NCBI GenBank assembly: GCA_963806185.1
Contig: CAWDXE010000006.1
Span: 1-64,000, forward strand
Direction: 5' to 3'
Source of the DNA: an uncultured candidate division Zixibacteria bacterium
Lineage (GTDB): Bacteria > Zixibacteria > MSB-5A5 > GN15 > FEB-12
Length of the DNA stretch: 64,000 nucleotides
The notes beneath the pieces are model-generated. The model searched no databases. It had not been told where the DNA came from and was given only the letters and a program-made list of their open reading frames with translations. Shown here piece after piece: positions 3,326-38,774 of this stretch. Positions within the stretch are counted from its first letter, which is position 1; every line of letters begins with the position of its first letter. The translations under genes and the position numbers were made by a program.

Positions 3326-5956
3326 TTACTTCTTCTTCGCCAGCTCTTCAACCATCTGCTTCAGCTCTTCCACCTGAGCTTTTAGGTCAGTGTTTTCTTT
3401 CTTAAGCTGTTTGATGGCCGCCAGCGCGATGCCTGACGGATCGATGGTCGAGATGGTTTTATCGCTGTTCCCCACGCCGAAAGCGGCTTTGAAATCCTGA
3501 GCGGTCGGTCCAATATGCTTGACCTCGTCCGATTCCGCTCGATAATTCCACTCCGAAATGGGAAGCTCTTCGATCTTGTTGAGAATCTCTTCGCCGTCAA
3601 CCGGCTGGAAGTTTTCCTTGAGATTCTTGTCCGAAGCGTTAACCCAGTCGCCGGCATTGGTCAATCGCGCACCGCTGGAGTGATGGATGGGGGCGTCCGG
3701 AAGCATTTCATTAATGCCGATTCTCCCCTGGCCGTCGATGACGATGGTCGGCGTTCCCGAACCGTTGCTCAGCGTGAGTGTCGCACTGGCATCACCGGCC
3801 GAGAGTGAGGCGCTTGATGAACTCAAGCCCGACGAGCGCGACAACTGTATCGTGGTGCCGTCGCCGGTCATGACATGAATCACGCCTGACACCCCACTTG
3901 ACGTGGAACTGCTCAACTGCATCTGCGCGGTCCCGGCCGTGTCACACGAGATGTCGGATTCGGCCGATGACGCTCCGTTAGTCGTCCGCAGATTGCTGGA
4001 ACACTTGGTGCGATTCGCTTTTTCTTTCGCCTTCATGAGCGCCGGCATGAGCATTCCCGGCGGCGTATACGTCACCGCTGTCTCATGCGACGCCGAATCG
4101 GCCTCACAACGCGTGGACGCCGTCGACCATTGCGAACCGTTGGTCACCTGCAACCCAACACGCGCGCTCTGTGGATCAACCGTGTCGGCAATGATGTTAT
4201 CCTGCGTGGGGATGTCGCCGTTCTGGAACTTCTGGTAGAGATAGCTTCTCGTTTCCTCGGAGGCCGACTTGCACGAGCCCTCAGGAACGTCGTCGTGATT
4301 CAGATCGACCGAGACAGTCGTCGACGCGCTCTTGGAATCGATGAGCGCCGAGAATTGACTCTGGGTCGGCTTGTCGCCGCGCTCGAAATAGCTCTTTAGA
4401 ATTGAGCGATCGACTGAGGTCTTCGAACTGGTGCCGACATCCGGCACGCCGTCATGATCGACATCAACGGAGGCCTCGACTGTGGCGTCGGAATTGTCGA
4501 CTTTCTGCCATACGGTGCGTTCGGCATGGCCGTCGCCGTCGTCATCCATGTCGCAACCAGTCACCGAACCGGAGCTATCGGACGTGCTTCCGAAACTTGA
4601 GCGTCTCCCGCTGAGCTCTACTTTGAAGCCGCGCACCTGGGCAAACTTGTCATCAGCTACAGCCGAGCATGAAACCTCGGGCACGCTGTCGCCATCGTCG
4701 TCGATTTCACATCGGTGAATTGCGCTCGCCGGTCCGGTGGAGCCCGACACCAGCACAAGTCTGGCATTGCTGGCGCCGGTACCTTTAGTCTTGATCGCCA
4801 TGGCGGAGCTCGTAGGTGTGAGCGATGAGGTGACGCTCGACGCCCCCAGCAAGCCCATGCTTTGCAATCTTGCTTCCAATTCGTTCAAGCGAACGCGCAC
4901 ATTGGAGGACGATGATGCGTCAGGGTTGCTCACTTCGGTGGAAACGGTCGCCGAGTCGGGCATCAGCTTCACACTGTGGCCCTCGAAATCGGTGCCGTTC
5001 CAGCGAATGGTGCCGGAGTACGCTCCGTCAGCGTCGACACTGTCGACAACCTGACTCTGAGTCGGTACGTCGCCGCTCTGAAAGTACGTCTTCAGTATTG
5101 ACCGGGACAATTTCGCAGACGACGATGAACCAACGTCGGGTGTGCCGTCGTCGTCGACGTCTACGCCAACCAGGCTCAGCGCTTCAGAATTATCCACTTT
5201 CTGCCAGGCGGTCCGATCGGCATGGCCGTCGCCGTCAAGATCAGCGACAACAACAACCGAGCCGCCCGCTCCACCGCCGCCGCCACCGCTGCCGGCTGTC
5301 GTCGTGACGCGGGAGTCGGAGAGGCCGTCGCCATCGTCATCACAGTCGAGATAATGCTGCAATTTGCCGGGCGTTGCTTCGGTCCTGGCATTCCCCCAAT
5401 GAGCCTGCCCCGGACTGTACAAGCGAAGCCCGAGCAGGGCGCGATCGTCCGCTAGATGAACGTAGCTATCGATGAGTCCGGAGAAACTCGATCGCGAGGC
5501 ATCTATTCTGGTCGTGTCGTTTCCTACGCCCATGTGCAAACTGCCGTGACCGGGGACATCGCTGCTCACCCCACCGGCCAGTGCAGCAGCCGGCACGGAA
5601 CCCAATCTAAGCCGAGGCAGGAGTGGTGTGCCGCTAATCGACTGTTGCAGGTAGAGATCATCACTCGAGTGGTCCGAGAAGAGGGTTCCGAAGCTGCTCG
5701 AACGCCCGAGCTCGCAGGAGAACAAACCATTCTTCACCTGGATGTCCTGGAGTTCACTCCAGACCATACTTCCGCCAACGGAATCGGTCCAGATACTGAA
5801 CGTGATGGCGTAGAAGCCGTCACTAACCGGCGTATCGTCTGAACCCAGCAGACGACCCTGGTGGCTGATGGTGTTGGACGCACCCGAGGCGGTAAGCGCC
5901 GACAGGCAGACCAGGAAAGTGGCGACGAGAATCGACAGACGTGGAAAGCGCATCAA
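3326..5956 (-). CDS. Secreted fibre-like protein with C-terminal peptidase S74 intramolecular chaperone and mosaic central region
   Basis: Signal peptide; N-domain TISHQGRLL...VKNGLFSCELG; multiple DxDxDG loops; S74 motif SDKNLKENF...WNY...HIGPTAQDF followed by a coiled coil. Confidence 0.85.
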   Translation of the reverse strand: MMRFPRLSILVATFLVCLSALTASGASNTISHQGRLLGSDDTPVSDGFYAITFSIWTDSVGGSMVWSELQDIQVKNGLFSCELGRSSSFGTLFSDHSSDDLYLQQSISGTPLLPRLRLGSVPAAALAGGVSSDVPGHGSLHMGVGNDTTRIDASRSSFSGLIDSYVHLADDRALLGLRLYSPGQAHWGNARTEATPGKLQHYLDCDDDGDGLSDSRVTTTAGSGGGGGGAGGSVVVVADLDGDGHADRTAWQKVDNSEALSLVGVDVDDDGTPDVGSSSSAKLSRSILKTYFQSGDVPTQSQVVDSVDADGAYSGTIRWNGTDFEGHSVKLMPDSATVSTEVSNPDASSSSNVRVRLNELEARLQSMGLLGASSVTSSLTPTSSAMAIKTKGTGASNARLVLVSGSTGPASAIHRCEIDDDGDSVPEVSCSAVADDKFAQVRGFKVELSGRRSSFGSTSDSSGSVTGCDMDDDGDGHAERTVWQKVDNSDATVEASVDVDHDGVPDVGTSSKTSVDRSILKSYFERGDKPTQSQFSALIDSKSASTTVSVDLNHDDVPEGSCKSASEETRSYLYQKFQNGDIPTQDNIIADTVDPQSARVGLQVTNGSQWSTASTRCEADSASHETAVTYTPPGMLMPALMKAKEKANRTKCSSNLRTTNGASSAESDISCDTAGTAQMQLSSSTSSGVSGVIHVMTGDGTTIQLSRSSGLSSSSASLSAGDASATLTLSNGSGTPTIVIDGQGRIGINEMLPDAPIHHSSGARLTNAGDWVNASDKNLKENFQPVDGEEILNKIEELPISEWNYRAESDEVKHIGPTAQDFKAAFGVGNSDKTISTIDPSGIALAAIKQLKKENTDLKAQVEELKQMVEELAKKK
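4355..5236 (-). repeat. Internal 62-aa duplication in the fibre protein (copies 5051-5236 and 4355-4540)
   Basis: DGDGHADRTAWQKVDNS...RSILKTYFQSGDVPTQSQ aligns without gaps to DGDGHAERTVWQKVDNS...RSILKSYFERGDKPTQSQ, offset 232 aa. Confidence 0.9.
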
Positions 5957-6259: not shown

Positions 6260-7321
6260 ATGAAAGGTAAACGAGTACTAGTCACCGGCGGCGCCGGCTT
6301 CCTCGGGTATCATCTGGCGCAGAATCTCCCCCGCTACGGAGTCGCCTTCATGGCGTTTAACGATATCGCGCCATTTTTCGAAAACGAGTACCCCAAGGGG
6401 AGTCTGCTGGTCAATGTCGATGTCCGCGATGCCGACGCCATGTACCGGCTCATCAAAGACAACAAGATTGAGATCATCGTTCACTGCGCCGCCGCTCTCC
6501 CGCTTTGGCCGCGCGAAGAGATCATGTCGACCAATATCGCCGGGGTCCGCAATACCCTGGAGCAGGCCCGTAAGGCGGGTGTGGAGCGGGTGATTTTCAT
6601 CAGTTCGACCGCCGTCTACGGAGTGCCGGAAAGGCACCCGCTGGTCGAAACCGACCCGGTTGAGGGTGTCGGGGCGTACGGCGAGTCGAAGATCGCCGGT
6701 GAGGCGGTCTGCGCTGAATTTCGCGATCAGGGGATGTGTGTACCGGTGATCCGCCCCAAGACGTTTATCGGAACTGCCCGGTTGGGCGTGTTTCAGATCC
6801 TGTACGATTGGGTCGATGCCGGCAAGCGGATCCCGATTATCGGCAAGGGCGAAAACCTGTACCAGTTGCTCGAGGTCACCGATCTGGTCGACGCGATCTA
6901 TCTGGCCGGGAGCGCGCCGCCTGATATCGCCAACGACATTTTCAATGTCGGCGCACAGCAGTTCAAGAAGGTGAAGCAGGATGTCGGCGCGCTGTGTGAT
7001 TTTGCCGGCAACGGCGCGCGCGTGATGCCGACTCCGGCGCCGCTCGTGAAGGGGGCGCTGGCGGTGTTTGAGTTCCTGAAGATTTCGCCGCTTTACAAGT
7101 GGATTTACGGAACGGCGGACAAGGACTCGTTTGTATCGACGGAGAAGATTCAGAAGAAACTGGGGTGGAATTCGAAGTATTCCAACGAGGACGCGTTGAT
7201 TACGTCGCACAAATGGTATCTGGAGCACAAGGAAGAATTGGCGCGCCAGCACAAGACGGGCGTGACGCACCGTGTAGGCTGGGATCAGGGGATACTGAAA
7301 GTGTTCAAGAGGTGGTTGTAG
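6260..7321 (+). CDS. NAD-dependent epimerase/dehydratase (extended SDR)
   Basis: TGGAGFLG Rossmann motif, SSTAVYG, YGESK catalytic YxxxK. Confidence 0.9.
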   Translation: MKGKRVLVTGGAGFLGYHLAQNLPRYGVAFMAFNDIAPFFENEYPKGSLLVNVDVRDADAMYRLIKDNKIEIIVHCAAALPLWPREEIMSTNIAGVRNTLEQARKAGVERVIFISSTAVYGVPERHPLVETDPVEGVGAYGESKIAGEAVCAEFRDQGMCVPVIRPKTFIGTARLGVFQILYDWVDAGKRIPIIGKGENLYQLLEVTDLVDAIYLAGSAPPDIANDIFNVGAQQFKKVKQDVGALCDFAGNGARVMPTPAPLVKGALAVFEFLKISPLYKWIYGTADKDSFVSTEKIQKKLGWNSKYSNEDALITSHKWYLEHKEELARQHKTGVTHRVGWDQGILKVFKRWL

Positions 7322-7338
7322 GGGGGCTCAAGTAAACC

Positions 7339-7378
7339 GTAGGGCAGCACCGATGCGATTCTTCGAGCGGGTGCTGCC
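7339..7378 (+). repeat. GTAG-family REP, type A
   Basis: GTAGGGCAGCACC-GATGCGATTCTTCGAGCG-GGTGCTGCC hairpin with GTAG foot. Confidence 0.9.
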
Positions 7379-7509
7379 AATCCTGCTGCTTTTCTATCAA
7401 AATGTGATACCCTTTCCTGCGTTTTTGCGTATTGGTCAGTTACACCATGCAGTCAGCTGCCATTCAGGCGCAATGCTGCAAATAACCAAAGCCGCCCAAG
7501 GGACAAGCT

Positions 7510-7923
7510 ATGGCAAATGTTACCCAGTCGGACATCGATCAGGTCATGGAGCACATCCACTCGATCTTTCGGGCATACATCAGTAAGGATCGAAAGACCA
7601 TTCGCGACCTGCACGCCCCGGATTGGATCGGTTTCCAGGGGCCGAGCCGGCAAATTGAGCGCGGCATCGACGCCTACATGCGCAACGCCGACAAATCGCT
7701 GGAGCATCTGACCGGTATCGGTTTTGCAATTCTCGACACTGAGATTCAGACCGCGGATAACCTGATTCTCGTGTATTATGTCGCCCGATATGATTACGCC
7801 GACGAGACTGGTGAGACGAAATCCCTGCCGCTCCGGTCCATTGACGTGTATAGGAAGATCGACGGCCAGTGGAACCAGATCGGTTCGCACATCGGGGTGA
7901 TCCCCGGAGGAGAGAATTGGTAA
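7510..7923 (+). CDS. NTF2-like / DUF4440 (SnoaL-like) protein
   Basis: 137 aa; LHAPDWIGF and RSIDVYRKIDGQWNQIGSH pattern typical of the NTF2-like fold. Confidence 0.75.
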   Translation: MANVTQSDIDQVMEHIHSIFRAYISKDRKTIRDLHAPDWIGFQGPSRQIERGIDAYMRNADKSLEHLTGIGFAILDTEIQTADNLILVYYVARYDYADETGETKSLPLRSIDVYRKIDGQWNQIGSHIGVIPGGENW

Positions 7924-7926
7924 ACC

Positions 7927-8034
7927 GTAGGGCAGCACTGATGCGAGTCTTCGAGCGGGTGCTGCTATCTCTTGGAATTCATGGACACTCCCGGCAGCAT
8001 CCGGCGCTCAGAAGCGCCATCGATGCTGCCCTAC
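7927..8034. repeat. Inverted REP pair (REPIN/BIME-like): type A (+) 7927-7966 and type B (-) 7993-8034
   Basis: Starts GTAGGGCAGCAC, ends GATGCTGCCCTAC; each unit is a hairpin. Confidence 0.9.
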
Positions 8035-8114
8035 AATGCAAGTCATGATTGCGCCAGCGCCGTCCGATCGATACCTTTAGTCAGCAACAAGGGTGCTCGA
8101 CGCCTGAGGAATTC

Positions 8115-8789
8115 ATGCGCATCTATCAAACCAGCCTCGCCAAGACCGTTGACTCCGTCAACGAAGCTTACTTTTTCAATCAGCCGGTTACTCGCACCGA
8201 ACGTGAAAAGGTTGCTGCCTTCATCGCCGGCCGGGAAAGCAAACCCGGCGCCTACGGCGGCATGTTCGCCCCTACCTCCGCAGATCAGAAAAACGGCATC
8301 CGGCTGTTCACCGGCGAAGAGGTTCCGCCATCCGCCGCCCTGCGCCACATCTCCGGCGAGGAGGCCTGCCGGGCTCTGATTCTCCTCGACAGTCGTGCAT
8401 CAGACGTGCAGGCGGCGCTGGCTCGCGCCACCACCGGCATGCTCGCCCAACTTGACCGATCCCGCAATGTCACCAAAGGATTCTTCTGCTGCGGCAAATG
8501 CGATCCTTCGCTCTGGCGTCACATCAGCGCCGGTGGCCTGCGCGGAGCCGAAATGTGGCTGGAGATCGGGTTGAAAACTCTCCGGGCGCATCGCATCGGT
8601 AATGGTCAGTGGCAGCGCTTCCCGTTTTGGTTCACGCTGCTGGCGCTGATTGATGTTGACCATGCTGCGGCAATCCAGGAGATGCGGTATGCTGCGTCGA
8701 GATGCGAGCGCAGTGTGCGCACGACTCCGACTACCGATTATGCTCGTCGTCGCCGGGCAGTGGCGGAGCGCATCCTGACGCGGTGCTGA
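8115..8789 (+). CDS. Hypothetical protein with CCGKC motif
   Basis: GAGGA RBS at 8106-8110 before ATG 8115; FFCCGKC and WQRFPFWFTLLAL segments. Confidence 0.6.
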   Translation: MRIYQTSLAKTVDSVNEAYFFNQPVTRTEREKVAAFIAGRESKPGAYGGMFAPTSADQKNGIRLFTGEEVPPSAALRHISGEEACRALILLDSRASDVQAALARATTGMLAQLDRSRNVTKGFFCCGKCDPSLWRHISAGGLRGAEMWLEIGLKTLRAHRIGNGQWQRFPFWFTLLALIDVDHAAAIQEMRYAASRCERSVRTTPTTDYARRRRAVAERILTRC

Positions 8790-8798
8790 CTGGCGACA

Positions 8799-9160
8799 CT
8801 ATTTTTTCGACCGCAACGAGCCTGCCGGGCGCTTCTTATTGTTATCTGCCGGCTCGAACCCAATCCGCCGGCGCTGTGGTTCATCCGGAGTCATCAACCG
8901 CCGAATTGCGTCGAATACAATGGTGAACTTTGCGTCATACTTCTTCTCCAATTCCTCCAGCTTGCGCGCCAAATCGGCATGCGTGGCCAATAACTGTCGA
9001 AGGCGAACAAACGCGCGGACGACGAATATGCTCATCTCGGCGGCGCGAGGCGAGTTGAGCACGCTGGCCAACATGAGGGCGCCATGTTCGGTGAAGGCGT
9101 AGGGGAGATGGCGCCTGCCTCCACGGCCGCTTGTTGAGGTCGCATTTTGCGACCTCAAAA
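8799..9160 (-). pseudogene. 5'-truncated ORF6N-domain DNA-binding protein
   Basis: LRSQNATS...GGRRHLPYAFTEHGALMLASVLNSPRA...RRIGF is the C-terminal half of this family. The N-terminal half is absent and REPs sit in its place from 9167. Confidence 0.8.
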
Positions 9161-9166
9161 AGGTCC

Positions 9167-9322
9167 GTAGGTCAGCACCGATGTGAGACTTCGAGCGGGT
9201 GCTGCCAATTACGTGGTTGTGTGGTCCGCTTCGGCAGCATCCGGCGCTAAGAAGCGCCATCGATGCTGCCCTACATTTCAGCCAAGCAGTAGGGCAGTAC
9301 CGAAGCGAGGGTTCTGCCCTAC
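9167..9322. repeat. REP cluster: type A (+) 9167-9206, type B (-) 9233-9274, short self-complementary GTAG...CTAC unit 9289-9322
   Basis: The first two units are near-identical to the 7927-8034 pair. Confidence 0.9.
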
Positions 9323-9515
9323 AATCTCCGATACTCCCCCCGTCGCGTTTACCGATGCGCCCCCGCTTTTCCTTGCCCCACAAGCACATAACTGCGCGCA
9401 CCACAGACACTGCACCTCCCCCAAGAATCCGCTTGTGAAATTCAGAACTTTCTGTATCATTTAGTCCACTGTATAGCTGACACTTTCCATCCGGGAGAAC
9501 GGGGCAAAACAGGGC

Positions 9516-10498
9516 ATGAAAAGTATTTTAGTCACCGGCGCTCTGGGGCAAATCGGTTCCGAGCTGGTTATCGAACTTCGCAAGCGGTACGGTCAGAAAT
9601 CCGTCATCGCCACCGACATCCGCATGCCGACCGACGTCACCCTGCGTGATTCGGGACCGTTTGAATTTCTCGATTGCACCGACCCCAATCACATCACCCG
9701 CGTGATGCAAATCTACAAAGTTGACACCATCTACCATCTCGCGGCGCTGCTTGTCGGCGGTGGCCGAATCCAAGCCGACCCTGGCCTGGGCGGTCAACGT
9801 CACCGGCATGTACAACATGCTCGAGGCGGCGCGACAGTATAAGTGCCAGTTGTTCGTCCCCAGCTCGATCGGCGCTTTCGGTTCGTCGACGCCCAAAGTC
9901 CGCACGCCGCAGGATACGATCCAGCGGCCGGACACGATGTACGGCGTCACGAAAGTCGCCGGCGAATTGATCTGCGACTACTATCACAAGCGGTTTGGTC
10001 TCGATACGCGCGGCGTTCGGTTCCCCGGCCTAATTTCCTACCAGACGGAGCCGGGCGGCGGGACGACCGATTACGCCGTCTCCATCTACTACGAAGCGAT
10101 CAAGCACAAGAAATTCACCTGCTATCTGCACGAGCAGACGCGCATGGACATGATGTACATGCCCGATGCGCTTGCACGCCATGATCAGCCTGATGGAGGC
10201 CGAAGCATCGCAGCTGATCCATCGCAATGCCTTCAATGTCACGGCGATGAACTTCACGCCGCGTGAAGTAGCCGCTGAGATTCGAAAGCATATTCCGGAT
10301 TTCACGATAGATTATCAGATCGATCCGGTCCGCCAGGGGATCGCTGATTCCTGGCCGGACAGTCTCGATGATTCCTGCGCTCGCGAGGAGTGGGGCTGGA
10401 AACCGGAGTATGATCTGTCGAAGATGACAGTCGACATGCTGACCAAACTCCGCGCCAAGCTAAATGCCGAGGGCGTCACGACAGGGGCGAAATTGTGA
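9516..10498 (+). CDS. tdh: SDR-type L-threonine 3-dehydrogenase (two apparent frameshifts, ~9750 and ~10175)
   Basis: [15 protein letters not shown] / [36 protein letters not shown] and RQGIADSWP lie in three consecutive frames. Confidence 0.8.
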
Positions 10499-10869
10499 TC
10501 GACGGCATTGGAGTCGATACGATCGAAACGGCCAGAGTGAAAAAGCAGCTGGCAGTCGATCACGGCTTCAAAGAGGCGATCTTCACCGCCGGCGAAATAG
10601 CCTATTGCGACAGCAAGCGCAACAGCGCCCCATATTACGCCGCCCGGTTCGCCGCCAAGGAAGCATTCTTGAAAGCGCTGGGCACCGGCCTTCGCGACGG
10701 CATTGCCTTCGCCGATATTGAAATTCTCCGCGACCCGCTTGGTCGCCCCTCCCTGAAATTGCATCGCCGCGCCGCCGAACAACTGCAGGCGGGCGGCCCC
10801 GCACATATACACCTATCATTGTCACACGTCGACGATGCGGCCACGGCCGTAGTCGTCATTGAGCGTTAG
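10495..10869 (+). CDS. acpS: Holo-ACP synthase (4'-phosphopantetheinyl transferase)
   Basis: GIGVD, ARFAAKEAFLKALGTG, GRP, LSLSH. Confidence 0.95.
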   Translation: MIDGIGVDTIETARVKKQLAVDHGFKEAIFTAGEIAYCDSKRNSAPYYAARFAAKEAFLKALGTGLRDGIAFADIEILRDPLGRPSLKLHRRAAEQLQAGGPAHIHLSLSHVDDAATAVVVIER

Positions 10870-10883
10870 AAGGAATATCGGGC

Positions 10884-12595
10884 ATGGCAAATTTCCAAGG
10901 GTACGAAAAACATACGAACGGGTTTCACCTGGTCAATCGCCGAAAAGGAACTGGGGTATACGCCCGGGGACGACATCAATATCGGCTGGTACTGCTCCGA
11001 CCGGATCTGTCAAATGGGCAAGGCCGACAAGCTCGGTCTGATCTGGCAGGGCATGACCGGCACGAAAAGAAATACACCTACAACGACATTCGTCTGGCCA
11101 GCAACACGATCGGCGCCTTTCTGCGCGGACTGGGGATCGATGCCGGGCGACCGGGTCTGCCTGTTCATGGACAAGATTCCTGAGTTGTACCTGGGCTTTG
11201 TCGGGGTGCTCAAAATCGGCGCCGTCGCGCAGCCGCTGTTTTCCGCCTTTGGCGAGGAATCACTGTTTGTCCGCCTGAGCAACGCCGAGACATGCGCCAT
11301 CATCACCCAGCGCAAGCATGTCGGCAAGGTTCGCAAGATCATTCACGAACTGCCGCACCTGAAACATATCATCGTCGTCGATTACGACGGCAAAAAGCCG
11401 CTGCAGGATCGGGAAGTCGCCTTCTCGCTGGAAGATGCGCCCAAAGTTGAGCATATCGACATTCATCCCACCAAGGCGGAGTCGCCGTCGGTCCTGCATT
11501 ACACTTCCGGCACGACCGGTCTTCCCAAAGGAGTGCAGCACGTTCATTACTCGCTGATGTCGCAGTACCTGACGACCAAGTGGGTGCTGGACATCAACGA
11601 CGACGACATCTACTGGTGCACGGCCGATCCGGGCTGGGTAACAGGTACTTCGTACGGCATCATCGGCGCCGTTTGCGACCGGCGTCACCCAGTGTGTGAC
11701 CGACATCGGTTTTTCGGCCGAAGCCTGGTACCGCTTTATCGAGAAATACAAGATTACCATCTGGTACTCCGCGCCGACCGCCATTCGCTCGCTGATGAAG
11801 GCGGGTGATGAGGTCGTCAAGAAGTTCGACCTCTCCTCTCTGCGCCATCTGGCCAGTGTGGGCGAGCCGCTCAATGCCGAAGCGGTCATCTGGTCACAGC
11901 GCGTGTTCGGTCTTCCGTTCCACGATACGTACTGGCAGACCGAGACTGGGTCGATCATGATCACGAATTTCCCCGGCATGAAGATCAAGCCGGGATCGAT
12001 GGGAAGAGCGTTTCCGGGCATTACGGCGACTGTGCTCGACGCCAAGACACTATGAACCAATTCAGGAACGGGGGCGTGTCGGCCTGATTGCGTTCAAGCC
12101 GGATTGGCCGTCCCGGATGCGCGGCTACTGGAACAACGAAGCGACGTTCCAGGGCAAGTTCAAGAACGGGTGGTATCTCTCCGGCGATCGCTCAAGCATC
12201 GACAACGAAGGGTACTTCTGGTTCACCGGGCGCGATGATGATATCATCAATACCGGCCGGCCATCTGGTCAGTCCGTTCGAAGTGGAGTCGGCGCTGCTC
12301 GAGCATCCGGCCGTGGCCGAATCGGCGGTTGTCGCCAAACCGGACGAGATCAACATGGAAGTCGTCAAGGCCTTCGTGCTTACTCAAACCGGGGAATACC
12401 GCCAGCGCCGAGCTCGAACTGGATATCATGAATTTCATCCGCAAGAGACTCTCTCCGCTGGCTATGCCGCAGGAGATCGAATATGTACCGTCTCTCCCCA
12501 AGACCCGCTCCGGCAAGATCATGCGACGACTGCTGCGGGCCAAGGAGTGGGGCGAGGAGATCGGCGATACCTCAACACTGGAAAACGACGATTAA
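10884..12595 (+). CDS. acsA: Acetate-CoA ligase-like adenylation enzyme (several apparent frameshifts)
   Basis: [57 protein letters not shown] and [11 protein letters not shown] are split across successive frames. Confidence 0.8.
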
Positions 12596-12617
12596 GCGAT
12601 AGCTCAGGAGGCATTGT

Positions 12618-12867
12618 GTGGAAAGTAATGTCAAAGACATCGTACTCACCTACGTCAAGAATGAATATCTCGAGGACGAGGATCAGGAACTCACCTACGA
12701 CACGCCGTTGATTTCGGGCGGGATTGTCGATTCGTTCTCGATGGTGTCGCTCAAGCGGTTTCTGGAGAACAAGTACAAGATTTCGATTCCGGATGACAAA
12801 GCGACGCCTGAAGCGTTCGATTCGGTGAACAAGATCGTCACACTTGTGCAAAGAGTTTGTGAAATAG
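12618..12867 (+). CDS. Stand-alone acyl carrier protein (one extra A near 12851 hides the TAG at 12865-12867)
   Basis: [20 protein letters not shown] phosphopantetheine-attachment motif; acidic, ~82 aa. Confidence 0.85.
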
Positions 12868-12942
12868 CTCCCGAGCACGGCCGCGTGCAGGAGCTTGTCG
12901 CTACTGCAGATGGCCGCAAGTCCGGGATTGAAGGGTACTCAT

Positions 12943-14190
12943 ATGGCATTTACAGACGCTGTCCGTCAAACATATCAGAAGCAGCTCAACGATATTCGTC
13001 AGGCGGGACTGTTCAAGCAGGAGCGCTTCATTCATTCGTCGCAGGCGGCCGATATCGAAGTCGAGTTTCCCAGCGGCGCCGCCTCCAAAAAAGTCATCAA
13101 CATGTGCGCCAACAATTATCTCGGGTTGTCCAGCCATCCGGATGTCATCAAAGCGGCACACGAAGGGCTCGATGTCCGCGGGTACGGCATGTCGTCGGTC
13201 CGCTTCATCTGCGGCACGCAGGACATTCACCGCGAACTTGAAGAAAAGATTACAAAGTTTCTCGGCACCGAAGCCACCATTCTGTTTCCGTCATGCATGG
13301 ACGCCAACGCCGGCGTCTTCGAAGCGGTGCTCACCAAGGACGACGTCATGATTGCCGACCGCCTCGTGCACGCCTCGCTTATCGACGGTATCCGCCTTTG
13401 CAGCGCGCAGCAGGACACCTACAAGCACGCCGATATGGAGCATCTCGAGCAGAAACTCGAGCTGCACCAGGACAAGCGGATGCGCATGGTCATCACGGAC
13501 GGCGTCTTCTCGATGGACGGCGACACGGCGCCGCTCGACCAGATGGTGGCACTGGGTGAAAAGTACAACGCGATGATTCTCGTCGACGATTCACACTCCA
13601 GCGGCTTCATCGGCAAGACCGGTCGCGGCACGCACGAGAAGTACGGCGTGGTGGGCAAGATCGACGTCATCACGACGACCTTTGGCAAGGCGCTCGGCGG
13701 AGCGTCGGGCGGCTGCGTGTCGGGCCGTCGCGAGCTGGTCGAGATGTGCCGTCAGCGGGCCAGACCGTATCTGTTCTCCAACACGATCGCGCCGGTGGTG
13801 GTGTCGGGTGTGCTCAAGGTGCTCGATCTGCTGTCGCAGAATACCGAACGTCGCGACAAACTCGAAGCCAACACCGCCTACTGGCGCAAGGGACTGGAGT
13901 CGGCCGGCTTCGTGCTCAAAGAAGGGGACACCCCGATCGTGCCGGTGATGTTGTTTAACGCCAAGCTGGCGCAGGATGTCTCCAAGGATCTGTACGACGA
14001 AGGCATTTACGCCGTCGGGTTCTTCTTCCCGGTCGTCCCGCAGGGACAGGCGCGCATTCGTACGCAGATTTCGGCCGGCCACGAGCGGCATCATCTGGAT
14101 AAGGCGCTGGACGCCTTCACCAAGGTGGGGAAGAAATACAATATCCTCGGCAAGACCAAACAGGAAATCATTCAGATGTACGGTCAGTAA
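12943..14190 (+). CDS. kbl: Glycine C-acetyltransferase (2-amino-3-ketobutyrate CoA ligase)
   Basis: CANNYLGLS, GMSSVRFICGTQ, TDGVFSMDG, DDSH, FGKALGGASGG, RPYLFSN, ARIRTQISA. Confidence 0.9.
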   Translation: MAFTDAVRQTYQKQLNDIRQAGLFKQERFIHSSQAADIEVEFPSGAASKKVINMCANNYLGLSSHPDVIKAAHEGLDVRGYGMSSVRFICGTQDIHRELEEKITKFLGTEATILFPSCMDANAGVFEAVLTKDDVMIADRLVHASLIDGIRLCSAQQDTYKHADMEHLEQKLELHQDKRMRMVITDGVFSMDGDTAPLDQMVALGEKYNAMILVDDSHSSGFIGKTGRGTHEKYGVVGKIDVITTTFGKALGGASGGCVSGRRELVEMCRQRARPYLFSNTIAPVVVSGVLKVLDLLSQNTERRDKLEANTAYWRKGLESAGFVLKEGDTPIVPVMLFNAKLAQDVSKDLYDEGIYAVGFFFPVVPQGQARIRTQISAGHERHHLDKALDAFTKVGKKYNILGKTKQEIIQMYGQ

Positions 14191-14215
14191 GACAGGGAGT
14201 GACCGAATCGCTGCA

Positions 14216-14243
14216 GGGCGCGCCACACGGCGCGCCCTTTTTT
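14216..14243 (+). terminator. Intrinsic terminator after kbl
   Basis: GGGCGCGCC-ACAC-GGCGCGCCC followed by T6. Confidence 0.85.
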
Positions 14244-14393
14244 GTGTCCGCCAGCCGGTCCAAAATTGCCTTGCCGGAGTGGGGCGGTCGCGTATATTAC
14301 ACCACCTTTGGCCGGGTCAATAGTGGACCTCAACTCTCCACTCCGCATCCCGGCCACGACAAGAGAACACTGGACAAGAGGTCGCGAGCCGTT

Positions 14394-15623
14394 ATGTCAC
14401 TGCACAAGTTCGTATCCCAGTTGAGAAATGAAATCGCCGATCTGGAAGAGGCCGGCAACAGCAAAGCGGCCGAAGTGGTGGTGCGCGCCATAGTCGCGCC
14501 CAAAGATGGCGCCGGGCCGCGCGTGTTGCTCGAGGGTCAGGGGGACCGTCAGTTTCTGCGCATGAATTCCAATTCCTACCTCGGCATGTCGGTTCGGCCG
14601 GAGGTTATTCATGCGGAGGAAGAAGCAGTGCGACGGTACGGAGTTGGACCGGGCGCTGTCCGGTTTATCAGCGGCACCTACGAGCCGCACGCCAGGCTGG
14701 AAAAACGACTGGCGGAGTTCCATGACCGCGAAGCCTGCATGATTACCTCGTCGGCCTACACGTCAGTGCTCGGTGTGTTCGTCACGCTCTCGACTCCCGA
14801 GACCATCATCATTTCCGATGAACTCAATCACAACTGCATCATCAACGCCATGAAACTGGCACGATCCAAGGATCGCAAAGTCTACAAGCACCTCGATATC
14901 GGCGATCTTGAGAAGAAGATTGTTGAATCAAAGGGGCAGTGTGACGGTATTCTCGTTGTCACCGACGGCGTCTTCAGCATGCGCGGCGCGTATGCACGGG
15001 TGGATCTCATCCGCAACATGATTGACAAGTATCAGGACGACTTCCCGCGCGGAATCGTGCTGATACTCGATGATAGCCACGGCGTCGGGGCACTGGGCAA
15101 AACCGGACGCGGTACCGAAGAGATGACCTGCTTCGGTTGCACCGATATCCTGATCAGCACGCTCGGCAAGGCGCTGGGGGTAAACGGCGGGTATATCGTG
15201 TCGAGCAAGCTGTTGATCCGGTATCTCCGCGAGAAGAATCCGCTCTACATCTATACTAATCCGATCACGCCGCCCGAGGCGGCAGCGGCGCTGGCGGCGC
15301 TGGAGATTCTTGACAGCCCCGAAGGTCTGCGCTTGATGGCTCATTTGCACGAGATGACGGAGAAGTTCGAAAAGGGACTGATTGCGCTGGGGTACGAGAC
15401 GATCGAGTCGATGCATCCGGTGGTGCCGCTGATGGTCCGCGACACAGCACGCACGACCGAGCTGGTGCAATTCCTGGCCGAGCACGACATTCTGGCGACG
15501 GGGTTGAATTTCCCGATTGTGCCGAAGGGGGATCAGTTGATTCGCTTCCAGGTGAACGCGAGCCACACGGCGGCGGATATTGAGTATGTGCTTGAGGTGT
15601 TGAAGAAGTTTAAGGCGCAGTAG
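14394..15623 (+). CDS. Second PLP-dependent alpha-oxoamine synthase (Kbl/BioF-like)
   Basis: NSNSYLG, GAVRFISGT, SDELNHNCII, TDGVFSMRG, DDSHGVG, STLGKALG. Confidence 0.85.
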   Translation: MSLHKFVSQLRNEIADLEEAGNSKAAEVVVRAIVAPKDGAGPRVLLEGQGDRQFLRMNSNSYLGMSVRPEVIHAEEEAVRRYGVGPGAVRFISGTYEPHARLEKRLAEFHDREACMITSSAYTSVLGVFVTLSTPETIIISDELNHNCIINAMKLARSKDRKVYKHLDIGDLEKKIVESKGQCDGILVVTDGVFSMRGAYARVDLIRNMIDKYQDDFPRGIVLILDDSHGVGALGKTGRGTEEMTCFGCTDILISTLGKALGVNGGYIVSSKLLIRYLREKNPLYIYTNPITPPEAAAALAALEILDSPEGLRLMAHLHEMTEKFEKGLIALGYETIESMHPVVPLMVRDTARTTELVQFLAEHDILATGLNFPIVPKGDQLIRFQVNASHTAADIEYVLEVLKKFKAQ

Positions 15624-15638
15624 AGCAGGTGCGGCAGG

Positions 15639-15737
15639 GTAGGGCAGGTCCGGACGCTTCTCAGCGTGGACCTGCCCTTTTTTCTGCTCTAGAAGCAGGC
15701 AGCACCCGCTCGAAGACTCGCTCCGGTGCTGCCCTAC
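15639..15737. repeat. Inverted REP pair: type C (+) 15639-15677 followed by a T-run, and type A (-) 15698-15737
   Basis: GTAGGGCAGGTCC...GGACCTGCCC and GGCAGCACCCGCTCGAAGACTCGCTCCGGTGCTGCCCTAC. Confidence 0.9.
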
Positions 15738-15740
15738 GCG

Positions 15741-16247
15741 TTACAGACGATAGACCATATAGCTGAAACTACCTATCGCAAATATTGTAATTCCCGCAAC
15801 TACCCCAAGACTCGTCCACATCCATCTCCGCCTCCGCGCGGGTTTCATTTCATCGAGTTCCTTGAAGTAATTCAGGTACTTGTCCTGTTTGAACAAAACA
15901 AGATGGTTCACTACCAACGGAATGAGGAATACGACTACGGCGGGAATTAGTCGGACTGTAAAGTCAATCTTGAATATTCCAATATAGAAAAAGATGATGC
16001 CGCTACATATCATTCCGATCAGCACATGCATTACTATACCAGCAAACATGTTGCTCAGACCAGCTTCCGGATTTTGCCAAGCTTTATCCACTTCACTCAA
16101 AACATCCACGCCTTTCCGGGCGTAAAATCTCTTTACCGAGGGCATTCGGAATATGAGTCTCAATGGATTGATCTTCTCAGTGACCACATGAAATCTGTAG
16201 AATCCCCGGTACACGAAGTAATGCACGATATTCCAAAGTCTTACCAT
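15741..16247 (-). CDS. AT-richer hypothetical membrane protein (about 3 TM segments)
   Basis: 168 aa from ATG 16247; aromatic/hydrophobic; visibly lower GC than the flanks. Confidence 0.7.
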   Translation of the reverse strand: MVRLWNIVHYFVYRGFYRFHVVTEKINPLRLIFRMPSVKRFYARKGVDVLSEVDKAWQNPEAGLSNMFAGIVMHVLIGMICSGIIFFYIGIFKIDFTVRLIPAVVVFLIPLVVNHLVLFKQDKYLNYFKELDEMKPARRRRWMWTSLGVVAGITIFAIGSFSYMVYRL

Positions 16248-16489
16248 GGGGTTACCTTTTCCGGCCGATCGTGGTGCAGATGAGTCCCGCATACCATTAT
16301 ACTGGCGAATAGACCCTTCTCTGTTTGTGGTTAGGGGGCGTTGAGCGACTGACTGCCATTCGCGCTTCGACCGTCTGCATAGACATAATATCTCCCAGTA
16401 TATCTATGAGGGCAAGGGCGAAAATTGGGGATTGCAGTGGCACTTCGCAATCAGAGGGAGAGGTGCGGCGATGCGGGAATTGAAATGAT

Positions 16490-16529
16490 GGCAGCGCCCG
16501 CTCGAAGACTCGCGTCGGCGCTGCCCTAC
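16490..16529 (-). repeat. REP type A downstream of RAYT
   Basis: GGCAGCGCCCGCTCGAAGACTCGCGTCGGCGCTGCCCTAC; both arms carry a compensatory change relative to other type A copies. Confidence 0.9.
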
Positions 16530-16542
16530 GACTTCTCTTAGA

Positions 16543-17046
16543 TCACTCTCCGTAATCATCGTCCGGTCCGAACTGGACGAAACTTCCCCAATCTGAAATG
16601 TATAAACCTTGCGAGACGTGGTGCCGAAACGACGACCATTCCCAATCGATTGCCTTGCTCGCGAACCCGTGTTTAACCGGATTGTAATGGATGTAATCGA
16701 GATGGTGATGAAGATCGTCATCATCGCGAATGATGTGATCCCAGAACCTCGGCTGCCAAAGGCGGTTTGTCTCCAGCCGCTCCGTCGCTGATTTTCTCCA
16801 TGTGTACGTCAATTTGAGCCGTCGAATTATCTCGGCGAGACTGGCGTGCTGCGGGTCGATAATCGCATGGAAGTGATTCGGCATAAGGACATACGCCTGC
16901 ATTCGAAATTCGATAACCGTTCGCATGTGTTTCCAAGCATCTAAGAAAGCCGAGGGATGGTCCAATAGAATCGGCCTTCGCCGGGCGGTAACGACAGAGA
17001 TGAAGTAGACTTGGCCGTCAGAGTAGTAACGTTTGAGCTTTGACAT
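16543..17046 (-). mobile_element. rayT: REP-associated tyrosine transposase (RAYT / TnpA-REP, HUH-Y1 family)
   Basis: MSKLKRYY...YFISVVT, PNHFHAII (HUH), LWQPRFWDHIIRD, YIHYNPVKHG (catalytic Tyr); flanked by REPs on both sides. Confidence 0.92.
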
Positions 17047-17054
17047 TCGAAGAT

Positions 17055-17284
17055 GGCAGCACCATTCGCTAAGAAGCGAATTCGGTGCTGCCCTACCTCC
17101 GAACGCAAAATCCGACATATGACTGACAGCGACGGTCAGTCAAAACGCAGACTTTCAAGATTCTTGATCATTGTGACGTAGGGCAGCACCGGAGCGAGTC
17201 TTCGAGCTGGTGCTGCCGATTCGACTTCTCGCTAACGGAGAAGGCAGGTCCCCGCGCAGAGAAGCGCGTCCGGACCCGCCCTAC
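17055..17284. repeat. REPs upstream of RAYT: B-like (-) 17055-17096, type A (+) 17178-17217, type C (-) 17243-17284
   Basis: All three carry a GTAG/CTAC foot and GGCAG arms. Confidence 0.9.
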
Positions 17285-17306
17285 AATTTGGATATCCTTC
17301 GATTTA

Positions 17307-17932
17307 CTAAATTTCCTCTGGTCGTAGCCCCATCCCCTTCAGCGCCTCGAGCAATTGCTGCTTGTTGGCCATGGAGATCTGGCGCCCCTGGAGCGGGAAA
17401 GCGGGAATGGTCCGGCAGTACTGCCGCAGCTTCACCACCGGCATCGCCTCAAGGTCGGCTGTCGAAAGTTGAGCAGGTGTCGGCTTCGGCGGAGTCGACT
17501 CAACGGTCGGCATCGGCTCTTTAACTACGGGTCTGGGTTTTGCCGCAGTGCGCCGAGGTGTAGCCGCACGGATCACCTCCGATCGCACGCTTACTTTCGG
17601 GAGCACTGGTGCGGGAGCATTCACGACGGCGGCGTGTCCACCCGGTCGACAGATCGCGTGTGGTGGCGAGGAGCGACGTCGAGCGCGTCGTGCGGTTTCG
17701 GGATCACGTGTGATGCCACCAGCAATCCCAGACGCTGGCACGCGCGTGCTCCGGCCTCGACCGCCGCTTGCACCGCCGCCAGTTCACCCTCGATCTTGAG
17801 TGTGACAGTGGGCGCATCTGACGGTCCGATCGCGGAGATGATAACATCGGCGGTTTTCGCCGCGACGTCAGTCGCCTCGATCGCGCCGATGAGGCCGCGC
17901 GTTTCTATCAAGCCCAGCGCTCGGTGCGACAT
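17307..17932 (-). CDS. BMC shell-domain protein with Pro-rich linker and C-terminal helical extension (frameshift ~17670)
   Basis: ALGLIETRGLIGAIEATDVAAKTADV...GELAAVQAAVEAG...HVIPKPH is the BMC domain; LEAMPVVKLRQYCR...ISMANKQQLL continues in the next frame. Confidence 0.8.
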
Positions 17933-18002
17933 ACGTCGTAAAGTATGCTAACTCACCCAAAGTACACGACTAAAAACTGCGGCGGGAAATGGCGATTGTC
18001 TG

Positions 18003-18041
18003 AAAAAATTATGCCGCCCGCCTCCCCTCGCGCGGACGGCA
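18003..18041 (-). terminator. Intrinsic terminator, minus strand
   Basis: TGCCGTCCGC/GCGGGCGGCA 10-bp stem; one pair is G:U on minus but a C-A mismatch on plus; followed by TAATTTTTT. Confidence 0.75.
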
Positions 18042-18130
18042 CTCTGCCAGAGAAGTACTGAGGAAACAAGAAAAGAGAAAAGGAGCTTGTCACTTCTGCG
18101 TGACTCTGCATCCTGGATAAGAATGACAGA
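18003..18130 (-). ncRNA. Candidate ~125-nt small RNA
   Basis: Sigma54-like motif upstream, hairpin GTCAC-GCAGAA-GTGAC, pyrimidine tract CTCCTTTTCTCTTTTCTTGTTTCCTC, terminator stem plus U-run. The 5' end is estimated. Confidence 0.5.
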
Positions 18131-18141
18131 CGACTCATATA

Positions 18142-18157
18142 ACAAGAATCCGTGCCA
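18142..18157 (-). promoter_or_regulatory. Sigma54 -24/-12-like promoter (imperfect)
   Basis: TGGCACG-GATTC-TTGT: perfect -24 element, but spacing is one nt longer than consensus and -12 reads GT instead of GC. Confidence 0.4.
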
Positions 18158-18327
18158 CCGCGCTCGGCGAACTCCAATCACACAGCAAGTAATTGTAATT
18201 AGCAAGTTATACTGTGCTCGTCAGTCGCTCGCGTCGAATCGCCGACACGAATTCGTACGATTTGTACGAGCCGCATCTCCCATGCGGAGATCAACGCGTT
18301 GTCTAGCAAACGATTAACAATTCAGAC

Positions 18328-18364
18328 AAAAAAGTAGCGGGGTCGTAACGCCATACGACCCCGC
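18328..18364 (-). terminator. Terminator of the TPR-sigma54 activator operon
   Basis: GCGGGGTCGTA/TACGACCCCGC 11-bp perfect stem followed by TACTTTTTT on minus. Confidence 0.85.
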
Positions 18365-18412
18365 CGGAATGAACCATGCGAATAGTTCAGGTCTTTGGAG
18401 CATAACTAGACC

Positions 18413-20668
18413 TCAGTTCGGAGCACCCACGGGTGCGGCAATGCCGTACCGTTTCAGTTTCATCCGCACTGTGGCCTCGTGAACGCCCAGCAGTCTCGCC
18501 GCTTCGCTCTTGTTGCCGTGCGCGGCCAAAGAGCGCTCGGTGATGAGCTGGCGTTCGAATTTCTCAACCCGATCGAAGAAATTCCCGTCGGCCGGCACCG
18601 TCGTCCCGGCAAAGATGGTGCGTGCCACCTCCTCCAGCTTGCCGTCGCTGACGAGTTGGGTCATGACTTCGAGCCGTTTGATCTTATTGGCCAGTTCGCG
18701 CACGTTGCCCGGCCAGTCGTAATCCATGAACTGGCGGACAAGCGCGCCGGCCGGCAATTCGCCTTCGGCCAGTAACCCGGCCTGTTGCAGGAAGTAGTTG
18801 ACGAGAAGCGGGATATCCTCCCGTCGCTCGCGGAGCGGCGGAATTGAAACGCAATGCCGCTCAGCCGGTAGTAAAGGTCGCGTCGGAACTTCGCCCTCCT
18901 CGACCATCTTCTCCAGGTCGCAGTTGGTGGCGGCGACCAGTTTGATGTCGAGGTCGATCTCGTTGGTGGCTCCGAGCGGGAGGACGCGACGGCGCTCCAG
19001 CACCGCGAGCAATTTCGCCTGCAGGGCGAGCGGCATGTCGCCGATTTCATCCAATAAAAGGACACCTCCGTTGGCCGCCACAAATAGCCCGATCTTTGCC
19101 GAATCGGCTCCGGTAAATGCCCCCTTGGCGAAGCCAAAGAGTTCGGACTCCAGTAGTGATTCGGGCACTGACGCACAATTGATGGCCACGTACGGTCCGT
19201 CGGGACGGACGACCGAATGGAAGTAGCGAGCCAGATGGTCCTTGCCGACGCCGGTCTCACCGGTGATCAGGATCGCCAGATCCGACTTGGCAAAGAGCGG
19301 AAGTTGCGCCTTGAAACGATTAATATCCGGGCACGACGTAATGTAGTCGCTCGTCTGCACACCAGCGGTCGCTCGCTTCGGATGGGTGTTGGCGATCAAC
19401 TCGATACCGGCAAGGGCGTCGATTTTCCGCGCGATCTTTTCCAAATAGGTCGGGAGCCCAAATCGCGCGTAGGCCTCCTCGGCCCGGAACAGGTAGTTCA
19501 CCCGTTGCCGAATACCAAACGACTCGCAATCGCCTGCTGCCGTCAGTGTCTGCGCGAATTCGTAGCGCGCCCCGCCATCCTCGAGTTGTTCCATCGCCTG
19601 GCTAAACAGCCTGCGAGCATCCTCGGCTTTGCCGGCAAGATGCGCGATCTGCGCCTTGAGCCTGAGCAATGAACCCAGCTCAACGCGATCATTGGCCTTC
19701 TCAAAAATGACCCAGCTGTGGGAGACGAATTTCTGCGCCATGCGCTCGTTGCGCACACGCAGGTAGACTTCGCCGAGATGACGCATGACGCGGGCGGCCA
19801 GCGTGGTTTCCGGACCGATTTTTTCGGCTTCAACCAGCGCTAGTTCCAGCATGCGCCGGGCCTCATCCAATTGACCCAGCTGGTAGTTCAATTCACCGAG
19901 GTACGACAGATAGATGACCTCATCGCGCTTGGACTGGCTGGCGATGATACCCGGGTAGGCCGTCTGCAGCGCCTTTTCCGCTTTGGCATAGTCGGCCATC
20001 TGCAGGTAGACATACGCGAGCGAAAGGTTGGCGCGCGACAAATCCAGTTCGTCGTGCAGCTCTGCCGACAAGTCGATGTTGATCAGGAGGTGTTTCTCCG
20101 CTTCGGCCAGTTCGCCGATAAACGTGTAGATACGGCCGATATTGCCCATCATGAAGGCTAGCTTCTTTTTGTCGTCGAGCCGGCGGGCGATTTCCACGGC
20201 ATCCATCAATACGTTCAGGGCATTACGATAGTCGGTACGGCGGAAGAGCATGCCGGCCAGACCGTTGAGAGCGCGGCTCTGACCCTCGAGATTGTCGTTG
20301 CGACGAAAGATCGATTCGGCGTCGCGGTACGACGTCTCCGCTTCTTTGAACTGGCCGAGGTCGCGCAGGATATTGCCGAGCGTGACGCATACATCGGCCA
20401 GGAGAATCGTGTCCCCATCCTTGGCAGCGGCGGCCTGCGCCAGTCGCCCAGTCTTGAGGGCGGTGGGCAGGTCATTCGACGCCAGATAGGCGCGCGCTGC
20501 CTGGAAGTATACGTTTCCGGCCGCAGCGGGACAGAGGTCGACCAGCAGGGGACGCTGGGCCTCATACTGCTTGATGGCCGCGGCATAGTCTCGTTTGCCT
20601 ACCAGCTCCGCAAGGGCGTTTGCCAGTGATTGGCCGAGTGCTATGTCGTAATTTTGGTGAGTACGCAT
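18413..20668 (-). CDS. Sigma54-dependent enhancer-binding protein with N-terminal TPR array and Fis-type HTH
   Basis: ~420 aa of TPR-like helices; GETGVGK Walker A, GAFTGA, LDEIG Walker B, WPGNVREL, GNKSEAARLLGV. Compensating frameshifts near 18850-18895 move FRRDLYYRL into another frame. Confidence 0.92.
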   Translation of the reverse strand: MRTHQNYDIALGQSLANALAELVGKRDYAAAIKQYEAQRPLLVDLCPAAAGNVYFQAARAYLASNDLPTALKTGRLAQAAAAKDGDTILLADVCVTLGNILRDLGQFKEAETSYRDAESIFRRNDNLEGQSRALNGLAGMLFRRTDYRNALNVLMDAVEIARRLDDKKKLAFMMGNIGRIYTFIGELAEAEKHLLINIDLSAELHDELDLSRANLSLAYVYLQMADYAKAEKALQTAYPGIIASQSKRDEVIYLSYLGELNYQLGQLDEARRMLELALVEAEKIGPETTLAARVMRHLGEVYLRVRNERMAQKFVSHSWVIFEKANDRVELGSLLRLKAQIAHLAGKAEDARRLFSQAMEQLEDGGARYEFAQTLTAAGDCESFGIRQRVNYLFRAEEAYARFGLPTYLEKIARKIDALAGIELIANTHPKRATAGVQTSDYITSCPDINRFKAQLPLFAKSDLAILITGETGVGKDHLARYFHSVVRPDGPYVAINCASVPESLLESELFGFAKGAFTGADSAKIGLFVAANGGVLLLDEIGDMPLALQAKLLAVLERRRVLPLGATNEIDLDIKLVAATNCDLEKMVEEGEVPTRPLLPAERHCVSIPPLRERREDIPLLVNYFLQQAGLLAEGELPAGALVRQFMDYDWPGNVRELANKIKRLEVMTQLVSDGKLEEVARTIFAGTTVPADGNFFDRVEKFERQLITERSLAAHGNKSEAARLLGVHEATVRMKLKRYGIAAPVGAPN

Positions 20669-38648: not shown

Positions 38649-38774
38649 CTCCTCCTGATTTCTTTCTGCACAATCATCCTTTTTCCGCACAGATGAATCT
38701 CCTCTCGACGATGGTGCCTGACGATTCGGCCGCTTCCCGCCGTTGACGTTGGGGCACTTAGCAATTCCTCCCTG

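Follow-up and report, generated by a model that had tools for sequence, protein, structure and literature searches.

Repetitive extragenic palindromes (REPs) with a GTAG foot crowd around a gene for a REP-associated tyrosine transposase (RAYT) in one part of a 64,000-nt stretch of an uncultured Zixibacteria bacterium (contig CAWDXE010000006.1, positions 1 to 64,000; hereafter the window), and the question that this locus raises is whether the transposase captures and shuffles genes there, in the manner of an integron, as had been proposed from the sequence alone (the sequence-only reading). The genome under study (G000; the window is G000:C6:1-64000) has 3.65 Mb in 8 contigs, is 82% complete and is the sole member of its genus; its genes were called by a simple custom script. 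G-numbers denote this genome and its relatives, and L-numbers stretches from relatives or metagenome contigs. We consider it likely that a RAYT together with its cognate REPs (a REPtron) landed at this locus, and that cis-biased, often one-ended REP hops then erased nearby bases, with no cassettes carried.

We found 13 GTAG feet with hairpins at 7339-17284 (7339, 7927, 9167, 9289, 15639 and 17178 on the plus strand; 8034, 9274, 9322, 15737, 16529, 17096 and 17284 on the minus strand), ten of which were folded. Since 9289 and 9322 belong to one double-footed element, these feet make up 12 elements, namely four inverted doublets of ~100-110 bp, three single REPs and the double-footed REP. A 14-mer search of the window gave 13 matches, 12 in the zone and one within a gene at 1258, against 0.40 expected, and none of 100 shuffles reached 13. 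Furthermore, a hairpin search of the 64-kb window found no GTAG hairpin outside the zone, and Rfam gave no match at 7000-18500. An initial candidate for the REP motif occurred at chance level and was dropped. The count of 12 GTAG REPs in about 10 kb near the RAYT, with none elsewhere in the window, is therefore as the sequence-only reading had it, and so are the details that it had picked out. Two genes end 3 nt before a type-A REP (TAA-ACC-GTAG at 7921-7930, and TAA-CGC-GTAG at 15743-15734 on the minus strand). An NTF2-like gene lies between direct repeats whose common 7-nt 5′ flank (copies 7339 and 7927) is the only one longer than 3 nt among the 136 pairs of 17 type-A copies. One gene, at 15741-16247, is AT-richer, its GC of 0.434 placing it at the 0.4th percentile of the genome, and an ORF6N gene lacks its N-terminal half and begins at REP foot 9167.

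The RAYT, whose true start is the ATG at 17046 (167 aa), scores 129 bits against an NCBIfam cut-off of 80 (NF047646) and aligns over 157 residues with the E. coli TnpA-REP, YafM (PDB 4ER8, E=9e-25), the HFH, WQ..R and DY motifs being aligned; against the IS200 profile NF033573 it reaches 19 bits, below the cut-off of 55. Cognate GTAG hairpins flank it (feet 17096, 17178 and 17284, and 16529), and the cognate REP type is concentrated around its own RAYT, which confirms the proposal that these REPs belong to this enzyme.

Next to this local picture stands the genome-wide one. Under a strict hairpin rule G000 contains 138 REPs, compared with 3, 3 and 3 in three shuffles; with 70 degenerate copies added, and 5 doubtful ones and 13 inside called genes removed, 190 intergenic REPs result. 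The genome has seven RAYT profile matches, six of them over the cut-off, corresponding to six intact RAYTs and one fragment. Regions within 10 kb of a RAYT make up 3.8% of the genome and hold 61 of the 190 REPs, an 8-fold enrichment, and the two densest 10-kb stretches are found at the window's RAYT (the second-densest) and at its nearest homologue, a 50% identical sister on contig C5. The emptiness outside the zone is local to the window: seven of the 17 type-A copies lie inside the zone and ten outside, and types A and B together number 30 copies, nine of them in the zone. At 121 of the 190 REPs the foot faces the 3′ end of its nearest gene, and the foot's own TAG is used as the stop at nine, the commonest stop arrangement. 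The map thus shows that the REPs are real and also that they are not confined to the zone. Because REPs occur genome-wide and mostly after gene ends, and because the metagenome contig L377, 88% identical in DNA to G000, retains the REP and the NTF2 gene, we largely found what the sequence-only reading had named as evidence against itself, that is, repeats after stop codons throughout the genome and stable local gene content.

Two candidate rules for REP placement were rejected. The exact spacing of a stop plus 3 nt is seen at 3 of the 190 REPs, two of them in the window, and feet stand next to hairpins as often (32/190, 17%) as random positions in the same gaps do (17%). The type-A pattern was found in none of the metagenome contigs. 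As a separate observation, the intergenic DNA of G000 contains many non-GTAG palindromic repeat families (140 gaps), for which the candidate mobilisers are six short GIY-YIG matches and three longer RAYTs that have no tightly flanking GTAG REPs.

Evidence that a REPtron can move comes from relatives. Within the family, 88 of 108 genomes have a RAYT over the cut-off, with up to 10 matches per genome among relatives, and of 52 loci from the family and the order, 28 have the RAYT enclosed by a pair of REPs that face inward, the ends being inverted copies of one REP. Three comparisons, all among draft metagenome-assembled genomes (MAGs), bear on the mobility of this unit. G041 and G113/G112, which belong to separate genera, are 92% identical over 593 bp once a separate 0.8-kb inverted-repeat insertion is set aside, and homology is bounded by CTAC at one end and by GTAG at the opposite end; the neighbouring genes are 68-77% identical and located on other contigs. 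The G041 flank, for its part, is most similar to that of a congener of G041 (81%), and these identities speak against misbinning. G112 itself has two copies of the unit at separate loci, 90% identical over 611 bp and ending at the upstream GTAG. Finally, G066 has an 84% copy together with a GNAT gene between direct REPs, and this site is empty and REP-free in G009 and G068, congeners that are just 75% identical to G066. The compared unit ends are precise, with no target duplication seen in the three comparisons. In addition, left-end partial copies carrying 6, 8, 126 and ~190 nt are found one gene away from RAYTs or standing alone. Judging from these alignments, the RAYT of same-family relatives likely jumps as a ~600-bp GTAG-RAYT-CTAC unit. 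A single non-jumping gene at a conserved locus, the mark of the domesticated RAYT groups 2 and 3, is not what we observe here, with six intact RAYTs in G000 and units at differing loci.

Inside the G041 REPtron we also observed a 0.8-kb element (L068:645-1440) with 19-bp terminal inverted repeats, a short target duplication, an unknown gene and no transposase.

At the window locus the genes next to the repeats are clipped. The NTF2 gene ends at a Trp, past which all 100 scorable homologues (of 119) continue. Its stop codon belongs to the flank that was copied over from the first repeat, which means that the second one was attached at the final codon of the gene. Four of the five homologues of the AT-rich gene have one codon more than it does. 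For ORF6N, the cut abuts a REP foot both in G000 and in G107, 8 and 6 nt from a hairpin internal to the gene, and in G107 a REPtron terminates in this foot. Among the 19 family copies, four are cut just 5′ of the internal hairpin. The cut at the foot is a deletion scar and not a cassette. An internal DNA palindrome (9134-9158 in the window) is found in most ORF6N copies of the family. Furthermore, G013 and 7 of 29 tdh loci have the BMC gene co-oriented with tdh and leading straight into it, with no RAYT between them, whereas in the window the tdh-kbl operon is reversed and both of its ends lie inside REP clusters.

We propose that a REPtron likely jumped into the BMC-tdh junction and that REP copies were likely seeded nearby, each join probably erasing some adjacent DNA. 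The RAYT would bind single-stranded REP hairpins, cut a few bases from the foot and rejoin the strand, so that each hop would take along 5′ flank (6-7 nt) or 3′ flank (6-190 nt). Insertions would survive only with an immediate stop, either the foot's TAG or a TAA/TAG brought in with the flank, and genes that end 3 nt before a REP would be explained in this way; surviving REPs would stand at gene ends because only such insertions spare the gene. If joins erase adjacent DNA, the repeats would come to abut the accessory genes of a plastic region with no cassette carriage. The inversion of tdh-kbl likely arose when inverted REPs recombined, through the action of the RAYT or of the host.

Several points weigh against this proposal. 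The window's RAYT has no close homologue among those found (the best, at 50%, is its own C5 sister, and a scan of genome contigs gave distant homologues only, at ≤49% identity), so its arrival at this locus is inferred and not seen. RAYTs also lie directly after kbl in G013 (L013), G090 and G091 (L295, L296), and the window's RAYT may therefore be old at the operon; the RAYT tree, drawn with no clade test, leaves the kinship of the kbl-adjacent RAYTs open. Neither the NTF2 nor the AT-rich gene yielded an empty site, insertion with target duplication would account just as well for the 47-bp direct repeat around NTF2, and the mobility of the unit is based on three draft-MAG comparisons. As for the kbl-adjacent RAYTs themselves, they differ from one another, as do their REP types, and the site after kbl is a possible recurrent landing site.

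An alternative that we regard as unlikely is gene capture, in which the RAYT would splice single-stranded DNA of foreign origin into a REP and in doing so duplicate this REP with a 6-7-nt stop-supplying flank, leaving excisable genes between direct REPs with no integrase involved. The NTF2 and AT-rich genes do have one and the same layout (REP A, gene, stop plus 3 nt, REP A of a doublet), each of them is clipped, and the three intact candidate genes are rare, with strong homologues of NTF2 in 2 of 60 relatives, the 224-aa gene in 2 of 60 and the AT-rich gene in 2 of 159. Likewise, lineage-specific genes lie between direct cognate REPs by RAYTs in G112 (UDG and a DUF3592-like gene) and in G066 (the GNAT gene). 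A further cognate REP is present within 1.5 kb at 12 of 81 RAYT flanks, and 8 of the 11 enclosed open reading frames have no match in G000 or the covered part of G014, an uncontrolled count in which one is a separate inverted-repeat element. A TAA or TAG at position -6 from the foot is found at 22 of 402 REPs against a mean of 10 at other offsets, but with 17 of 402 at offset -7 the stop peak is not sharp, and the comparison is post hoc with copies that are not independent. A second stop-bearing 7-nt flank is common to separate loci in G112 and G117.

Capture nevertheless predicts cargo that recurs in brackets, and no cargo gene is bracketed twice: REPs bracket 0 of 2 NTF2, 0 of 2 224-aa and 0 of 5 AT-rich homologue loci, one AT-rich paralogue having a REP 107 nt downstream. 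The sequence-only reading had suggested comparing the locus among related genomes. L377 keeps the order of the short-chain dehydrogenase/reductase (SDR) gene, REP and NTF2, with a related flank; it stops inside NTF2, the second repeat being outside its range, and the gene that differs there, an upstream 876-aa gene missing from L377, has no REP. No identical cassette was found at separate places in the nine homologue loci, the single close relative L377 keeping NTF2, and no window gene has a DNA-level twin within G000, hence no duplicated REP-bounded gene. The 18 REP-bracketed genes of G000 are not significantly AT-richer than 339 standalone controls (median GC 0.55 vs 0.566, p=0.13). In the one relative used for gene order, G014, of which 2.0 of 3.0 Mb (67%) were covered, we found 4 of the 18 bracketed genes and 103 of the 339 controls (p=0.60); leaving out the three RAYTs gives 1 of 15 (p=0.077), a shift in the direction of capture. 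AT-rich or rare cargo was therefore rejected as a genome-wide rule, neither the GC nor the rarity difference being significant.

Gene order across REP gaps is kept in 7 of 38 cases against 15.7 expected in matched gaps (permutation p=0.013), and in 5 of 24 REP gaps against 22 of 47 terminator gaps (p=0.04). Non-GTAG repeat gaps are equal in this respect, however (3/25 vs 7/38, p=0.73), and REP gaps as RAYT-specific breakpoints were rejected.

Integrons are built from an IntI integrase and attC cassettes. The zone resembles them superficially, in its small accessory genes that end by hairpins and its folded single-stranded sites, and differs from them in having no uniform orientation and no cassette at two places. 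Of the four partial integrase matches in G000 (82% complete), none exceeds the TIGR02249 cut-off and none is in the window. Co-oriented tandem units of a gene plus a site are absent from the zone; orientations are mixed, the sites are partly doublets, and a 6.3-kb housekeeping operon with no REPs in between fills the middle of the 10 kb. The integron-like layout with REPs as cassette boundaries is not supported, given no integrase over the cut-off, mixed orientations, no cargo gene found bracketed elsewhere, and GC and gene-order signals that are lost to the controls. What stands of the proposed RAYT-mediated capture or shuffling is that junctions have altered their neighbours (NTF2 and ORF6N clipped, tdh-kbl inverted). 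The locus is a mobile variant of a known system and a modest example of it, no new cassette system, and gene capture is unproven. The broader idea, that Zixibacterial RAYTs are autonomous transposons that also capture genes and build integrase-free cassette fields (NTF2 and AT-rich here; GNAT, UDG, TIR and DUF genes in relatives), is doubtful to the same degree; if true, capture would supply the missing host benefit of 'domesticated' RAYTs.

Least probable is passive accumulation, in which any repeat persists in a weakly constrained region subject to ordinary recombination and an old resident RAYT has no special role in clipping or inversion: gene order at non-GTAG gaps, the presence of other repeats in 70 of 97 GTAG gaps, ORF6N cuts near the same hairpin in G117 and G001 with no GTAG REP at the cut, and the RAYTs after kbl in three other genomes are in its favour, but it leaves unexplained the precise ends of mobile copies, whose homology stops at GTAG feet, the concentration of the cognate REP type around its own RAYT, and two independent ORF6N cuts that abut a foot 6-8 nt from the same hairpin.

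Table: Coordinates of the features at the REP/RAYT locus (window positions) and of related stretches in relatives.
Feature	Position	Strand	Remarks
NAD-dependent epimerase/SDR gene, conserved, left anchor	6260..7321	+	PF01370; match in 30/60 relatives at E<=1e-60
7-nt flank and type-A REP (foot 7339), first direct copy	7332..7378	+	L377: degenerate foot, similar flank
NTF2/SnoaL-like gene, C-terminus clipped, stop from the repeat's flank	7510..7923	+	PF14534; strong homologues in 2/60 relatives
REPIN/BIME doublet: second direct copy (flank and REP A, foot 7927+), linker, REP B (foot 8034-)	7920..8034
224-aa hypothetical gene, GC 0.62	8115..8789	+	no Pfam; found in 2/60 relatives
ORF6N gene, 3′ half	8799..9166	-	PF10543 positions 54-86 only; REP foot cuts 8 nt before internal hairpin 9134-9158
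Doublet REP A (foot 9167+) / REP B (foot 9274-)	9167..9274
Double-footed REP	9289..9322
tdh-acpS-acyl-CoA synthetase-ACP-kbl-kbl operon, no REPs, inverted relative to neighbouring BMC gene	9415..15623	+
Doublet REP C (foot 15639+) / REP A (foot 15737-)	15639..15737
AT-rich predicted membrane-protein gene	15741..16247	-	two paralogues in G000
REP A, downstream of RAYT	16490..16529	-
RAYT / TnpA-REP, HUH and catalytic Tyr intact	16543..17046	-	NF047646 129 bits; PDB 4ER8 alignment E=9e-25
REP immediately upstream of RAYT, left end of REPtron	17055..17096	-
Doublet REP A (foot 17178+) / REP C (foot 17284-)	17178..17284
BMC-domain gene, right anchor	17307..17932	-	PF00936; in relatives leads straight into tdh
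Defence-like gene at RAYT end (G117)	L357:663-2480
Defence-like gene at RAYT end (G046)	L054:2147-3145
Defence-like gene at RAYT end (G157)	L322:1059-1910

Further observations concern the neighbouring genes. The linker of the doublet at 7920 is most similar to that of a doublet at G000:C6:122836. Neither the 224-aa protein nor the AT-rich protein has a Pfam match, and in the ESM Atlas both fall into unnamed clusters, the leads for the 224-aa protein staying below 0.9 with a weak one to squalene-cyclase-like barrels. The 876-aa gene missing at the L377 site (3326-5956, minus strand) encodes a secreted repeat protein with a C-terminal Peptidase_S74 chaperone domain, and a large gene at 38139-40366 has protein repeats at a 336-nt spacing in 4-6 copies. 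The defence-like genes of the table, found between or against cognate REPs, encode an AAA_15 ATPase, a TIR domain and a DUF5677 domain.

The tdh-acyl-CoA synthetase (ACS)-acyl carrier protein (ACP)-kbl-kbl operon is ~80% identical in DNA to G081 (L297) and G082 (L294), with a TDH segment at 92-93% against 70-81% elsewhere, and in G081 and G082 its context differs from that of their congeners; the operon is probably shared with them by horizontal transfer. The acpS-ACS-ACP-kbl insert between tdh and kbl has a patchy distribution in the family. Single-base frameshifts scattered in tdh, the acyl-CoA synthetase and the BMC gene are probably assembly errors. In G029, five paralogous secreted proteins (~214 aa) form a tandem array upstream of tdh (L015:589-5044), and a gene block that lies 3′ of kbl in G014 has its two ends elsewhere in G000, at C5:284917 and C1:502373, next to a RAYT or a fragment of one.

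The field has yet to settle by what route REPs spread and if RAYTs ever mobilise themselves; this family offers foot-ended 600-bp units at different loci, partial copies with a single end, and neighbours whose clipped ends hint at the cut sites. REPs have been described to supply stop codons (PMC3733652) and to be concentrated near a recently arrived tnpA (PMC8266576), and cleavage 5′ or 3′ of the REP with strand transfer has been reported (PMC3333891). REPtrons are stated not to transpose as a unit (PMC3333891, PMC6006769), and PMC8266576 and bioRxiv 2021.07.10.451892 state that evidence for tnpA-REP/RAYT mobility is lacking; horizontal transfer of RAYTs and novel sites had previously been suggested (PMC3686654, PMC5581495, PMC6006769). 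No paper on capture of cargo by RAYTs, on REPtrons mobile as units or on REPs of Zixibacteria came up in a search that left most subscription papers outside. As the sequence comparisons read, the ~600-bp units at differing loci contradict the statements that REPtrons do not move as units.

Like the E. coli REPtron (YafM/4ER8, REP/BIME; PMC3333891, PMC8266576), the system described here has an HUH-Y1 enzyme, long bulged hairpins preceded by a GTAG foot, inverted doublets of ~100-110 bp, and REPs that are intergenic and mostly after gene ends. Its likeness to the E. coli TnpA-REP and its long bulged REPs make the RAYT a candidate member of group 2 (subclass 2.2). Unlike the E. coli system, G000 has six intact RAYTs, and relatives up to 10 matches, at no fixed locus, and the REP-RAYT-REP unit in relatives appears to move whole, a movement that the same two sources deny. 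The REPIN/RAYT systems of Pseudomonas and Stenotrophomonas (PMC3116915, PMC3686654, bioRxiv 2021.07.10.451892) likewise have several REP classes, each with its own RAYT, and doublets that are probably what moves; for these systems horizontal transfer, and now and then a RAYT at a novel site, had already been suggested (PMC3686654). Their RAYTs are described as non-jumping and vertically inherited, whereas here foot-ended units 90-92% identical are found at differing loci and across genera. As in the REPtrons Ma and Mb of Marinomonas MWYL1 (PMC8266576), REPs cluster near tnpA, which is read there as recent arrival and local multiplication, but the REP types of G000 are also genome-wide, with 10 of 17 type-A copies outside the zone. 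Finally, the likeness to IS200/IS605 lies in a transposase between terminal hairpins, no target duplication at the compared ends and scars resembling adjacent deletions, and the difference in ends that are inverted GTAG REPs, a RAYT score of 129 bits compared with 19 for IS200, and copies that are diverged and not identical. Taken together, the unit may represent a living intermediate between IS200 elements and domesticated RAYTs.

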